Assembly (NCBI GenBank): GCA_964537935.1
Contig: CAZICT010000001.1
Span: forward strand, 70,870 to 134,869
Length of the DNA: 64,000 nt
Direction: 5' to 3'
Source: an uncultured Candidatus Saccharibacteria bacterium
Lineage (GTDB): Bacteria > Patescibacteriota > Saccharimonadia > Saccharimonadales > CAZICT01
Both the position numbers and the translations under genes were made by a program. Under the pieces are notes generated by a model. That model searched no databases, had not been told where the DNA came from, and was given only the letters and a program-made list of their open reading frames with translations. Each line of letters starts with the position of its first letter. Position 1 is the stretch's first letter. Positions 8,050 through 52,043 of the stretch are shown in pieces.

Positions 8050-8922
8050 ATGTATTCCGGAACAACCTTAACCAGGTTCTCGGGGCGCGTACTTGGTGCG
8101 CATCAGAAAATCGATCGAGTGGCACGTAAGCATTTATCTAAACTGATAAGTGATAATAGCTTATTTCCGGCAGCCAAGGAAATACTTAACTTCGAGGGTA
8201 AAAACGGCCCCGATGGCATTAAACGTAAAAGTCCGGCCCGTGACGAGCCATGGCATTATTTCGATCCGTTCGATGACACAGACAAACAGTTAACCGAAAT
8301 AATTGAGCAGCATTATAATGCGCTGGTCAAAGAGCTCAAGGCTAAAAACAATGAAAAGGTGGCATTCGAAGCTGCCTGGTTGGCTCATGCATTGGTTGAT
8401 GGATTGACTCCTGCTCATCATTTTCCGTATGAGGAGAAGCTGATAGAGCTCCGTGGTGGAAAACCCATAGAATCACGAACAACCATAAAGGAAAAGCTGG
8501 TTATGCACGGTGACACCAGACGGGAGAAGATTAAGAATAACTGGCAGATGTGGGGCCCGAAGGGTTTGCTTACTACTCATGGACTTTTCGAGATAGGCAT
8601 TGCAACTCTGATGCTGCCAGCGAGGTTTACTGATGTTACGCCAACCACTGAAGAGCGCCAAGAAGCGGCCGAGCTCGGTATAGTTGAAATATTCAAACGT
8701 TATGCCCGTGAAATTGCTGTACTGGATATGTATGAGCGTTATTATCAACACGGATGGACTCCTAAGCTAGCCTATGATGTACGGCATAAGCTCGGACCTC
8801 TCATTATAAAAGCCGTTACGCTGGCATGGTACAGTGCGCTTATAGATGCTAAGTTAGCCTCGGAGAAAACACATGAAAATAGTCAGCGGAAAGCTCGGCG
8901 GAAGAACGATAGAAAGTCCTAA
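8050..8922 (+). CDS. Hypothetical protein (His/Asp-rich helical, possibly zinc-dependent phospholipase C / P1-nuclease-like fold)
   Basis: 290-aa ORF; AWLAHALVDGLTPAHH segment; functional assignment uncertain. Confidence 0.55.
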   Translation: MYSGTTLTRFSGRVLGAHQKIDRVARKHLSKLISDNSLFPAAKEILNFEGKNGPDGIKRKSPARDEPWHYFDPFDDTDKQLTEIIEQHYNALVKELKAKNNEKVAFEAAWLAHALVDGLTPAHHFPYEEKLIELRGGKPIESRTTIKEKLVMHGDTRREKIKNNWQMWGPKGLLTTHGLFEIGIATLMLPARFTDVTPTTEERQEAAELGIVEIFKRYAREIAVLDMYERYYQHGWTPKLAYDVRHKLGPLIIKAVTLAWYSALIDAKLASEKTHENSQRKARRKNDRKS

Positions 8923-9559: not shown

Positions 9560-9601
9560 TCCTCCGTCGCTCCGCTTTTTGCGGAGCTATGGAGGATTTT
9601 T
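9560..9601. terminator. Rho-independent terminator (bidirectional hairpin)
   Basis: tcctcc..gctccgc-ttttt-gcggagc..ggagga followed by ttttt. Confidence 0.7.
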
Positions 9602-9678
9602 AGTTGGAGGAATTGAACCGAGAGGTGATAAGCGTCAAGGGCATTTCTCAAGGAGACTTTTCAGATTTTAAAATATTC

Positions 9679-10407
9679 TCATTGTTTATTATTTTTATGG
9701 GTAGATGATTCAGCTAGCGGCCCTTTCTTAACCTCAGGGTATATGTCGCCCGTAGCTTTGTTTAGTGAAATTGCCGTTAAAGAAGATTCCGAAAGCAGCT
9801 GTGCCTCACCAGCACTTAATTTTTGTCTGTCTGAAGTGGTTGCGATTTTATATATTACCCAAGCCGAAAAAATTAACCCGATAATTCCTGCAAGTATTCC
9901 GATAAAACGAACGCTAATTGCAATTATATTGTCCATCTCCAACAAATTGAACTTACCTAGTATAAAATTCCAGTCGTGAATTATCTCTTCTCCACCGGCC
10001 AGTCCGCCACCAAGACTCACTAAGGGCAGTTGCTGGGTTCTAGCATCGCTTATGTATGTCGCAACACTTTGGCAAGCAAGAAATAACCATAGGAAACAAA
10101 ACAAACTGGCAAAATACGTCCGAGTTTTGAATGCGCCGTATACCAGCAAACCGCCGAGCAGAAGTTCCGAGAGCGAACCGGCTGCCACAGCAAAAAATTC
10201 CGGTAAAAAGCTGGCAAATATGTGAGCCATTTCGTGCAAGAAGAAGTTAAACGAATAAGGCACGGCTATAACGAACGGCATATGAATATGCGAAAAAGAC
10301 AGTAATTTAATAAATACGTATAGCCCAAACAGCCATACCGGCACATACCAATACCAGGTATGTGATGCAGCATAATCTTCAATAGCTGCATTTATATCTT
10401 TAAACAT
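9679..10407 (-). CDS. Polytopic membrane protein with HExxH motif (putative membrane metalloprotease-like)
   Basis: 242 aa, ~6 predicted TM segments, HEMAH motif; no family recognised with certainty. Confidence 0.6.
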   Translation of the reverse strand: MFKDINAAIEDYAASHTWYWYVPVWLFGLYVFIKLLSFSHIHMPFVIAVPYSFNFFLHEMAHIFASFLPEFFAVAAGSLSELLLGGLLVYGAFKTRTYFASLFCFLWLFLACQSVATYISDARTQQLPLVSLGGGLAGGEEIIHDWNFILGKFNLLEMDNIIAISVRFIGILAGIIGLIFSAWVIYKIATTSDRQKLSAGEAQLLSESSLTAISLNKATGDIYPEVKKGPLAESSTHKNNKQ

Positions 10408-51041: not shown

Positions 51042-51118
51042 GCCACCTTAGCTCAGCTGGTTAGAGCGGCGGTTTTGTAAACCGTAGGTCGTCGGTTCGA
51101 ATCCGACAGGTGGCTCCA
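51042..51118 (+). tRNA. tRNA-Thr (anticodon TGT), CCA encoded
   Basis: Acceptor GCCACCT/AGGTGGC, anticodon loop TTTGTAA, T-loop TTCGAAT. Confidence 0.92.
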
Positions 51119-51161: not shown

Positions 51162-51247
51162 GCAGGGATAGTGAAGCGGTCAAACACGGCAGACTGTAAA
51201 TCTGCTGGCATTCGCCTTCGGGGGTTCGAATCCCTCTCCCTGCACCA
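51162..51247 (+). tRNA. tRNA-Tyr (anticodon GTA), long variable arm, CCA encoded
   Basis: Acceptor GCAGGGA/TCCCTGC, anticodon loop ACTGTAAATC context, T-loop TTCGAAT. Confidence 0.9.
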
Positions 51248-51249
51248 TG

Positions 51250-51284
51250 CTAAAATAGCTCACCTTCATGGTGGGCTGTTTTAG
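51250..51284 (+). terminator. Hairpin after tRNA-Tyr (terminator-like)
   Basis: ctaaaa-tagctcacc-ttca-tggtgggctg-ttttag then tttctg. Confidence 0.45.
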
Positions 51285-51311
51285 TTTCTGTAACCGGGTA
51301 GGGATTCGAAC

Positions 51312-51332
51312 GGGTTTGCCAGTGGCAAACCC
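51312..51332 (+). other. Hairpin A: 8-bp stem, AGT loop (apex TGCC-AGT-GGCA)
   Basis: ggtttgcc-agt-ggcaaacc; covaries with hairpin B at 51675-51693. Confidence 0.7.
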
Positions 51333-51363
51333 CGGCACTTTTGGAGATTCATCGACAAAAGCG

Positions 51364-51381
51364 ATCCCTCTCCCTGCACCA
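51364..51381 (+). repeat. 18-nt exact duplicate of the tRNA-Tyr 3' end (atccctctccctgcacca = 51230-51247)
   Basis: Direct repeat 116 nt downstream of the genuine 3' end. Confidence 0.9.
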
Positions 51382-51419
51382 AACTAAGGGTCGGGCCATG
51401 AGCCCGGCTTTTAGTTTGG
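51379..51419 (+). terminator. Long hairpin after the duplicated tRNA-Tyr 3' end
   Basis: ccaaactaa-gggtcgggc-catg-agcccggctt-ttagtttgg. Confidence 0.45.
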
Positions 51420-51486: not shown

Positions 51487-51515
51487 TTTAAAATTAGGTT
51501 GATATCTGTTAAAAT
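51487..51515 (+). promoter_or_regulatory. Promoter upstream of the tRNA-Thr(GGT) unit
   Basis: TTTAAA-N17-TAAAAT with extended -10 (cTGtTAAAAT). Confidence 0.5.
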
Positions 51516-51529
51516 CTGGTAGTTGTTAC

Positions 51530-51557
51530 ACCATCTTAGCTCAGGGGTAGAGCACCT
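51530..51557 (+). pseudogene. 5' tRNA fragment (acceptor strand ACCATCT + D-arm + start of anticodon stem)
   Basis: 51537-51557 is 21/21 identical to 51581-51601 of tRNA-Thr(GGT); diverges after cacct. Confidence 0.6.
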
Positions 51558-51573
51558 AGTACATTTTCATTAT

Positions 51574-51648
51574 GCCGTTGTAGCTCAGGGGTAGAGCACC
51601 TCCATGGTAAGGAGGGGGTCACGAGTTCAAATCTCGTCAACGGCTCCA
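51574..51648 (+). tRNA. tRNA-Thr (anticodon GGT), CCA encoded
   Basis: Acceptor GCCGTTG/CAACGGC, anticodon stem-loop cctcc-atggtaa-ggagg, T-loop TTCAAAT. Confidence 0.92.
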
Positions 51649-51674
51649 GATCACAGAGAGATGGTCTCGGGTGA

Positions 51675-51693
51675 GAACTGCCAGTGGCAGTTC
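51675..51693 (+). other. Hairpin B: 8-bp stem, AGT loop (apex TGCC-AGT-GGCA)
   Basis: gaactgcc-agt-ggcagttc; three basal pairs changed compensatorily relative to hairpin A. Confidence 0.7.
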
Positions 51694-51758
51694 GCAAGGA
51701 AACCTTCCGATGAAAACTTGTTTTCAATCGTGAAGTTTCGGGGTCGCCGAAGGTGACT

Positions 51759-51778
51759 AAATCCCGAAGATGGCTCCA
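51759..51778 (+). pseudogene. 3' tRNA fragment (aaatcccgaAGATGGCtcca) matching the 51530 5' fragment
   Basis: AGATGGC (51768-74) complements CCATCT (51531-36) in 6 of 7 acceptor positions; ends in TCCA like a tRNA. Confidence 0.5.
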
Positions 51779-51780
51779 GG

Positions 51781-51809
51781 TTGAAAAACATCGTATAATC
51801 TGTTAAAGT
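51781..51809 (+). promoter_or_regulatory. Promoter for rpmG
   Basis: TTGAAA-N17-TAAAGT with extended -10 (cTGtTAAAGT); a TATAAT also at 51794-99. Confidence 0.55.
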
Positions 51810-51842: not shown

Positions 51843-52043
51843 ATGGCTAAAAATACTAAACGAAAGACTGTTGGGCTGGTTTCGACCGAGAGTGGCCACC
51901 GACACTACTACACACGTAAAAATACAATGAACACGGCAGAAAAACTTACTTTGCGTAAGTACGATCCCGTACTGCGCAAGCATGTAGTATATGAAGAAAC
52001 CAAAAAGAATCTTGGCCGCAACGAAGTTAAGCCAAAGAAATAA
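51843..52043 (+). CDS. rpmG: 50S ribosomal protein L33 (bL33), Cys-free form
   Basis: MAKNTKRKTVGLVSTESGHRHYYTRKN...LRKYDPVLRKHVVYEETK. Confidence 0.9.
   Translation: MAKNTKRKTVGLVSTESGHRHYYTRKNTMNTAEKLTLRKYDPVLRKHVVYEETKKNLGRNEVKPKK

Follow-up and report, generated by a model that had tools for sequence, protein, structure and literature searches.

The window analyzed here is a 64,000-nucleotide (nt) stretch of contig CAZICT010000001.1 from an uncultured Candidatus Saccharibacteria bacterium, and the subject is its tRNA-Thr(GGT) locus at positions 51530 to 51778, where two pieces of one tRNA gene enclose an intact tRNA and an 86-nt folded module, termed E2. The locus is probably a disrupted A-type tRNA-Thr(GGT) gene, and the module a non-autonomous, RNA-structured parasite or passenger of tRNA genes. 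The two pieces are most likely relics of the displaced A-type gene, not the halves of a gene that is split and rejoined, and presumably have no function. The enclosed B-type tRNA-Thr(GGT) is the functional copy, which is predicted to perform the decoding now.

The origin of the two pieces is given by the corresponding genes of relatives. With the neighboring GH15 gene, 80 loci were fetched from genomes labelled Candidatus Saccharibacteria or Saccharimonadales (these and all other loci are cited by L numbers); the gene order GH15, L33, tRNA-Thr(GGT) is retained in most of them, and their tRNA cluster consists of Thr(TGT), Tyr, and Thr(GGT). The tRNA-Thr(GGT) genes occur as discrete alleles, which differ by compensated changes in the acceptor stem and the T-stem. 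The A-type allele, GCCATCT..GGTCTCGGGTTCAAATCCCGAAGATGGCTCCA, is intact in L011, L029, L033, L046, and L056; the B-type allele, with the acceptor GCCGTTG/CAACGGC of the intact gene in the window, is also present in L014, L018, L030, L032, L060, and L086. The 5′ piece (ACCATCTTAGCTCAGGGGTAGAGCACCT, 51530-51557) agrees with the best-fitting A-type allele at 27 of 28 positions, the mismatch being the first base (A for G), and the 3′ piece (AAATCCCGAAGATGGCTCCA, 51759-51778), situated 110 nt past the tRNA, agrees with A-type genes at 20 of 20. Furthermore, GGTCTCGGGT at 51663-51672 matches the A-type genes at all 10 positions, and thus the variable loop and the T-stem 5′ strand of this allele are also kept, which had been overlooked by the preliminary description of the locus. 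Judged on sequence comparison, the matches of the fragments to the intact allele far exceed chance. Over all the related loci (L009-L088), the Thr(GGT) alleles are patchily spread, the A-type being found in six and the B-type in seven Saccharimonadales genomes; this patchy occurrence of discrete alleles suggests that whole tRNA genes may be replaced between lineages.

Every sequence feature in the preliminary description is borne out: the position of both pieces, the 16 nt between the 5′ fragment and tRNA-Thr(GGT), the 21 identical nt common to the end of the 5′ fragment and the D-arm region of the intact tRNA, and the pairing of ACCATCT with AGATGGC in six of seven positions (the sole mismatch is A/C at the first pair). 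The intact gene is truly nested between the two fragments, and both fragments derive from one tRNA gene with a replaced middle, as proposed. The repeat search aligns 51526-51557 with 51570-51601 at 84% over 32 nt, and the 3′ piece matches the intact gene's own 3′ end at 76% only. However, the suggestion that the disrupted gene occupies the slot of a tRNA-Gly fails, since none of the approximately 70 related loci contains a tRNA-Gly in the Thr-Tyr-Thr cluster and the fragments are those of a Thr(GGT) allele.

The leader in front of the 5′ fragment, TAGTTGTTAC followed by A, resembles TAGTTGTTGC followed by G, which leads the intact A-type gene in L066. Past the 3′ fragment, GGTTGAAAAACATCGTATAATCTGTTAAAG, which includes the L33 promoter, shows homology to the sequence trailing the intact tRNA-Thr(GGT) in L014. 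Because both flanks are syntenic with intact genes of relatives, the A-type gene is the resident one, and therefore all of 51558-51758 lies inside it. At the first break, positions ~32-36 of the A-type gene, in the anticodon loop, are swapped for 97 nt comprising the 16-nt leader, the B-type tRNA, and 6 nt. At the second, the T-loop is split between T54 (51672) and AAAT (51759-51762) by the 86-nt module. L155 has a comparable trimmed layout, in which the terminator is missing and the intact tRNA precedes the module by just 28 nt.

Where a promoter was claimed in front of the 5′ fragment, a promoter-like site lies at 51487-51515; it is probably the resident tRNA-Thr(GGT) promoter and is predicted to drive the fragment, the intact tRNA, and the module now. 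The terminator search found none between the intact tRNA-Thr(GGT) and E2, nor before L33. Because the sole promoter-like site precedes the 5′ fragment and no terminator lies before L33, the halves are predicted to be probably still transcribed. If co-transcribed, the 5′ fragment would form the leader of the working tRNA, and the module with the 3′ fragment its trailer.

The 110-nt hairpin-rich segment, described previously and treated as filler, is present, but it forms the conserved, recurrent part of the locus. Its structure, derived from 74 aligned copies, is a four-way junction for which a host stem provides the closing helix (P1); then follow UGA, helix P2, the top of which is invariant (GCC-NGU-GGC), GCAAG, helix P3, which is long, GG, and P4. 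In E2, TCGGG constitutes the 5′ strand of P1, with its predicted partner at 51763-51767; according to this model, E2 closes its four-way junction with the T-stem as helix P1. All elements that define the family, designated R1, are found in E2: GGUGA, P2 with GCC-NGU-GGC, GCAAG, P3, GG, P4 with G-U, and closure by the host stem. The R1 covariance model scores 51666-51771 at 111.5 bits (E 1.9e-36, the R1 E-values being rough), and the single-sequence fold of E2 predicts all helices with a z-score of -3.2. Across the 74 homologues, 94.9% of the cells are paired, versus 72.5% in column shuffles and 29-49% with slid partners, controls that do not account for phylogeny, and in 25 of 32 pairs both partners have changed in a compensatory manner. 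Of the 74 sequences, 68 retain one particular G-U pair, and G-U is frequent at three further positions; because G-U pairs become A/C mismatches on the other strand, the fold exists on the tRNA sense strand only.

No Rfam 15 family corresponds to this fold. Rfam 15, at gathering and permissive thresholds (E up to 10), contains no family covering the module in the window and 20 related loci. A partial match to DUF3800-VI at 51673-51707 in the window (P2 and GCAAG) reaches 16.2 bits versus a gathering threshold of 35, and is probably due to chance, since it is absent from the 20 other loci. By-eye comparison with the hammerhead, twister-sister, hatchet, and T-loop-mimic RNAs yielded none that fits, and Rfam supports none of these identities. 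A description of the module was not found in the full text of open-access papers. If this reading of the module holds, the family is a structured, RNA-like element missing from every RNA database.

The core pattern GGTGA N5 GCC N GTGGC N5 GCAAG, drawn from six homologues, is matched on at least 120 metagenome contigs; its 134 matches include a few chance ones in coding DNA. R1 gives 125 and 30 matches in two overlapping sets of core-pattern loci, and 9 matches in 1.28 Mb of Saccharimonadales genome loci. In the viral collection IMG/VR, a single core-pattern match lies in coding-looking DNA, and blastn of the module against phage and plasmid collections gave no match. Of 130 core matches, 87 share the strand of their nearest tRNA and 2 lie on the strand opposite to it. 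The host fragments belong to at least 17 isoacceptor families. At the tRNA-Thr(GGT) locus itself, the module is absent from approximately 70 relatives. Modules also occur in tandem arrays (L105, L059, and L204), including arrays with D-loop insertions in tRNA-Gln fragments, and in nests (L110 1789-1968(-), L174 847-1025(-), and L181 571-1450(+)), where, following GG, the inner copy stands in place of the outer copy's P4 start. Decayed copies are present in the window (9620-9687) and in L036, and L071 contains a stand-alone copy with a non-tRNA P1.

The module always lies in a hairpin loop, that of a partial tRNA copy adjoining the intact cognate gene or, sometimes, that of another module or another hairpin. 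Two recurrent contexts cover half of the copies. In the first (39 copies), the intact tRNA and its terminator are followed by the 3′ third of the tRNA in degenerate, inverted copy, the forward variable loop and T-stem 5′ strand, the module, which begins 65-90 nt past the tRNA, the rest of the T-loop, the T-stem 3′ strand, the acceptor strand, and NCCA, often with a second terminator copy. For 26 of 35 inverted copies, the score exceeds those of 198 or more of the 200 shuffles. In the second (26 copies), the 5′ part of the tRNA up to the broken loop is followed by the module, the 3′ strand of the broken stem, a short piece of inverted T-arm, a -10-like box, and the intact cognate tRNA, which begins 126-145 nt past the module start. 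In L047, the entire 5′ part of tRNA-Tyr runs directly into the module at T54, with the intact tRNA-Tyr next. The interrupted loop is mostly the T-loop; insertions in the anticodon loop occur in cases of tRNA-Pro(GGG), tRNA-Leu(TAG), and tRNA-Leu(GAG), and in the D-loop in cases of tRNA-Gln(TTG). After the module, 50 of 80 standard-length copies have a recognizable T-loop remainder and T-stem strand, with the full acceptor strand and NCCA following in 30 of these 50, and P1 forms at least four of five pairs in 38 of the 50. Fragment length varies from just a few bases within one stem to 54 nt, and either 5′ or 3′ parts are represented.

A conserved non-coding region of approximately 400 nt between pth (peptidyl-tRNA hydrolase) and dprA (L129 1370-1760, L128 820-1200, L101 1-360(-), and L208 1600-1960(-)) opens with a long hairpin whose loop is GGGGGTGGGCACC, and an upstream partial duplicate of this hairpin holds the module in its loop in the same four loci. 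The region itself has no Rfam match.

In several loci, the fragment allele is not the adjacent working allele, and the stems are compensated, as in the window (A versus B), L037, L105, and L155. The 3′ fragment AGGTGGC adjoins an intact CTTCGGC gene in L037, and the anticodon stem of tRNA-Gln differs in L105. These differences imply that the copies come from different functional lineages and that tRNA sequence travels with the rearrangements. Meanwhile, seven short-read contigs of the same species from other samples are 99.7-100% identical to the window and all begin inside E2, and such breaks are the behavior of repeated sequence in assembly. The species is present in the sequencing runs SRR36387337, SRR36387334, SRR36387325, SRR36387331, SRR7082976, SRR7082982, and SRR23005872. 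Aligned with the window, the contigs found through exact protein matches to L33 and a tetratricopeptide repeat (TPR) protein (L001-L008) end in tRNA-Thr(TGT) (51070) or in E2 (51688-51762). Because all of them end in Thr(TGT) or E2, the tRNA cluster is spanned by none of these public short-read assemblies.

Fragment identity, flank synteny, family membership, covariation, strand bias, recurrent contexts, and the lack of linked mobility genes are observations, whereas transcription, mobility, and a mechanism of mobility are inferred. In favor of movement stand the range of isoacceptor families and loops that host the module, its nested, tandem, and decayed copies, its absence from relatives at the Thr(GGT) locus, and the contig breaks inside E2. 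The module would be transcribed and structured, would depend on a host stem for closure of its junction, and would persist only in redundant tRNA fragments. It may spread, within and between genomes, by recombination at the highly conserved tRNA sequence, surviving only where recombination or template switching also leaves or brings a whole tRNA. Palindrome-driven template switching could supply the partial copies in forward, inverted, and forward order. Spread of this kind would produce stereotyped partial duplications, inverted middle copies, and fragment alleles unlike the working gene. Tandem inversion duplications in Salmonella arise by template switching at short inverted repeats. In yeast, inverted triplications are formed in the same way through ODIRA (origin-dependent inverted-repeat amplification; PMC11507740). 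Such a triplication resembles the order in which the tRNA 3′ third is repeated here (forward, inverted, forward); the junctions fall at palindromes, namely the terminator hairpin and a small hairpin near the variable loop. However, it is a general mechanism that leaves the conserved module unexplained, and the copied segments here are tens of bases as against kilobases.

Several points weigh against the module as a tRNA passenger. The junctions 51557/51558 and 51648/51649 are known from the assembly of this window alone, independent assemblies supporting the sequence only from 51688 onward, and the metagenome contigs were counted without taxonomic assignment. Mobility and the exact insertion boundaries are read from the distribution of copies only. 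Near the copies, neither transposases nor integrases nor reverse transcriptases are enriched: Pfam searches of 55 open reading frames (ORFs) in the inter-tRNA insertions of relatives and of 150 ORFs flanking modules gave no recombinase, reverse transcriptase, TnpB, or IscB among the most frequent families listed (the top 25 of each search); the ORFs belong to housekeeping families, and the sole mobility gene is one IS110-type transposase, which does not adjoin a module. The strong conservation and covariation could equally well reflect a host function. Finally, no single reconstructed event explains the B-type tRNA inside the A-type anticodon loop; Campbell-type integration, tandem duplication with deletion, and one-sided-homology transformation were considered, and none reproduces all junctions.

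The host function just mentioned would make the module a useful small RNA whose attached tRNA piece is functional, for example as a guide or specificity segment that directs the conserved scaffold to the cognate tRNA or to the gene or enzymes belonging to it; the partial copies would then be maintained and not be relics. Strong purifying selection on the junction nucleotides, triloops, and G-U pair across many contigs agrees with such a role, as do the regular spacing of each copy from an adjoining cognate tRNA, the retained P1 complementarity (at least 4/5 base pairs in 38/50), the undecayed A-type fragments of the window, and the lack of a linked mobility gene. However, copies are patchy at the same locus among relatives, some are decayed (window 9620-9687 and L036), and one in L071 stands alone with a non-tRNA P1; fragments that vary from a few bases to 54 nt and are taken from either end poorly fit one guide geometry, and a partner protein was not found. 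A host RNA is considered unlikely. Comparably doubtful is the idea that the module is the scaffold of a tRNA-directed RNA system, with a junction predicted to recruit a protein or to be catalytic and the tRNA fragment in P1 serving as the address. The omega RNAs and reRNAs of IscB and TnpB and the IS110 bridge RNA likewise join a scaffold to approximately 20 nt copying the flanking target, but no such gene adjoins the modules (no OrfB_IS605 or IscB among the neighbor families listed, and one IS110-type gene among 205 ORFs), no Rfam match exists, and the flank-derived part of the module may be 5′ or 3′ and pairs with the other flank to close P1. If true, such a scaffold could mean that the module either propagates itself into tRNA loops with no transposase linked to it or controls or protects individual tRNAs.

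An origin purely at the DNA level appears improbable. A miniature inverted-repeat transposable element (MITE), repetitive extragenic palindrome (REP), or palindrome-associated transposable element (PATE), moved as single-stranded DNA by a distant transposase (e.g., HUH) and folded for the sake of transposition instead of an RNA, would, like the module, be small, multi-copy, gene-less, and hairpin-rich, with nested copies and insertion into hairpin loops, and inverted repeats do flank the module in the common arrangement. Hairpins conserved in structure and variable in sequence, as in the module, are typical of IS200/IS605 and integron attC substrates of single-strand transposition. Unlike MITE, REP, or IS200-IS605 palindromes, the module is a four-way junction with invariant unpaired junction bases and with conserved and frequent G-U pairs on one strand, which fit RNA better, and it is almost absolutely co-oriented with tRNA transcription (87:2). 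At its loci no short target-site duplication of fixed length is seen, the duplicated target material measuring 20-75 nt, and they contain no Y1/Y2 or DDE transposase in approximately 1.8 Mb, save the one IS110-type gene; no transposase was found near the copies.

Direct repeats of a tRNA 3′ end past the intact tRNA (18/18 for Tyr and 76% for Thr(GGT)) are the classic signature of attL/attR sites, where likewise a copy of the last 18-25 nt lies downstream of the intact gene and the targeted tRNA stays functional; moreover, many relatives have 2-8 kb of extra DNA between tRNA-Tyr and tRNA-Thr(GGT). The repeats could then be scars of tRNA-targeting integrative elements or phages, and the hairpin segment a remnant of an attachment-site (att) arm. 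Nevertheless, this is very improbable, since no tyrosine or serine recombinase is among the most frequent Pfam families listed for the 55 and 150 ORFs, and the phage, plasmid, and IMG/VR collections give no match but the one in coding DNA. In contrast to att repeats, the module unit is approximately 130 nt without an integrase, and the T-loop of the copy is broken by a folded module; 5′ fragments, anticodon- and D-loop insertions, inverted middle copies, fragment alleles other than the working gene, and one-strand G-U covariation would all be left unexplained.

The preliminary description also entertained a split, permuted, or intron-bearing tRNA-like gene. For such a gene to function, the ACCATCT/AGATGGC stem would fold the precursor, excision would remove the inner tRNA and the module, and the two halves would then cooperate. 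The 6/7 acceptor complementarity, the intact D-arm and T-stem, and the probable inclusion of all parts in one transcript would suit it. Yet both pieces lack the anticodon loop, inspection of AGTACATTTTCATTAT and GATCACAGAGAGAT on either side of the break shows no complementarity, and the genome is bacterial, with no splicing-endonuclease motif, no Rfam intron family, and, with E values up to 10 admitted, no group I core matched in Rfam. In this stretch, only 51574-51648, an intact tRNA-Thr(GGT), is called by ARAGORN and by the Rfam tRNA model, and no relative has matching halves at the Thr(GGT) locus. Among 154,488 in-silico deletions round the 134 core-pattern matches, removal of the insert never restored a tRNA; tRNAs spanning the junction needed deletions of at least 137 nt, which joined the fragment to the next intact gene. 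This reading is already largely refuted, and scarcely credible. The disrupted tRNA genes of Archaea and red algae, reviewed in PMC4390854 and PMC3978253, comprise split genes (Nanoarchaeum), tri-split and permuted genes, and genes with non-canonical introns in the D- and T-arms. They resemble the module loci in loop interruptions, including the T- and D-arms, and in pieces lying apart in the genome; the present case differs in its bacterial host, the lack of a bulge-helix-bulge and of reassembly to a full tRNA, and the uninterrupted cognate alongside. Group I introns in anticodon loops of bacterial tRNAs (e.g., bioRxiv 10.1101/2020.01.27.920355) are, like the module, structured and apparently mobile RNAs within a tRNA loop on the sense strand; in contrast, the module is approximately 86 nt versus >200 nt, lies mostly in the T-loop, and interrupts a fragment that cannot be spliced to a tRNA.

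Elements parallel to E2, likewise overlooked by the preliminary description, adjoin two other tRNA genes of the window. E1 repeats the last 18 nt of tRNA-Tyr exactly (51364-51381), has the hairpin TGCCAGTGGCA in common with E2, with compensated lower stems, and has homologues only in L057 and L065, likewise after tRNA-Tyr. Homologous segments, which relatives have after tRNA-Tyr or tRNA-Thr(TGT), each close with a repeat of the final 18-20 nt of whichever tRNA lies upstream. With the second (duplicated) terminator, the E1 region spans 51280-51416. After tRNA-Leu(TAG), an inverted T-arm (GGAGGAATTGAACC) is followed by the degenerate module start GGTGATAAGCGTCAAGGGCATTTCTCAAGG, which R1 scores (9620-9687) at 10.9 bits with a rough E of 0.06. 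The inverted-copy test is significant for both the Tyr and the Leu elements, the latter outscoring 200 of 200 shuffles. Counting E2, such elements accompany three of the window's five tRNA genes.

Table 1. Positions of the tRNA genes, tRNA remnants, modules, and flanking signals in the window
Feature	Position	Strand	Evidence or remark
Decayed copy after tRNA-Leu(TAG) and terminator	9606..9687 (region 9590-9690)	+	
tRNA-Thr(TGT)	51042-51118		called by ARAGORN / Rfam
tRNA-Tyr	51162-51247		called by ARAGORN / Rfam
E1, after tRNA-Tyr and terminator	51280..51381	+	repeat search, inverted-copy test
E1, inverted copy of tRNA-Tyr 3′ end, AGGGATTCGAAC	51300-51311		
E1, hairpin GGGTTTGCC AGT GGCAAACCC	51312-51332		second hairpin next
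E1, exact 18-nt copy of tRNA-Tyr 3′ end	51364-51381		18/18 vs 51230-47
Promoter-like site TTTAAA-17-TAAAAT with TG	51487..51515	+	5′ of the 5′ fragment
5′ remnant of A-type gene, positions 1 to ~31 (acceptor 5′ strand, D-arm, anticodon-stem start)	51530..51557	+	
16-nt spacer, leader of the intact tRNA	51558..51573	+	ends ..CATTAT before G, like tRNA leaders of related contigs
Intact B-type tRNA-Thr(GGT)	51574-51648	+	ARAGORN; Rfam tRNA 67.8 bits
Degenerate anticodon-stem 3′ strand, variable loop GGTC, T-stem 5′ strand TCGGG, T54 (A-type)	51655..51672	+	
E2, 86-nt four-way-junction module in T-loop	51673..51758	+	covariance model, covariation, fold
E2, P2 (GAACTGCC AGT GGCAGTTC), preceded by (T)GA	51675-51693		
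E2, GCAAG	51694-51698		
E2, P3	51699-51739		then GG
E2, P4 (GGTCGCC GAA GGTGACT)	51742-51758		
3′ remnant of A-type gene: T-loop rest AAAT, CCCGA, AGATGGC, discriminator T, CCA	51759..51778	+	
Promoter-like site of rpmG (L33)	51781..51809	+	marks ancestral downstream flank
rpmG (ribosomal protein L33)	51843-52043		3′ of tRNA cluster

Other folded scaffolds, unrelated in appearance, are situated likewise, behind a tRNA with its terminator, and end in a copy of the 3′ end of that tRNA: L024 3913-4059(-), L030 14484-14615(-), L059 12949-13229(+), L018 14464-14595(-), and L031 14479-14616(-). One common scaffold with differing tRNA ends is found in L024 (Tyr) and L030 (Thr-TGT), and the unit is present twice in tandem in L059. 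Seeds for nhmmer from the L024/L030, L059, L018, and L031 scaffolds each found only one or two relatives. Because these other scaffolds hold the same position, the lifestyle spans more than one RNA family. In L037, tRNA-Thr(TGT) is followed by a 52-nt one-hairpin mini-element and a perfect copy of its last 26 nt (8700-8810(-)), and 42 nt past tRNA-Thr(GGT) lies the 3′ end of another allele of this tRNA, without a module (8230-8300(-)).

If the module is indeed a passenger of tRNA genes, an abundant and uncatalogued RNA-like family would exist in Saccharibacteria and in the organisms of the metagenomes, remodelling highly conserved tRNA loci. It would account for assembly breaks at tRNA clusters and for "pseudo-tRNAs" beside real genes, and it would provide a route for the exchange of tRNA alleles with differing acceptor stems between lineages. 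The puzzle thereby raised is how a gene-less element of approximately 90 nt comes to lie in the T-, anticodon-, and D-loops of many tRNA fragments with a working copy always left, which makes the family a candidate for ribozyme or RNA-protein study. Meanwhile, the apparent "split tRNA" of this Saccharibacteria genome is recast as a dated, interpretable rearrangement.

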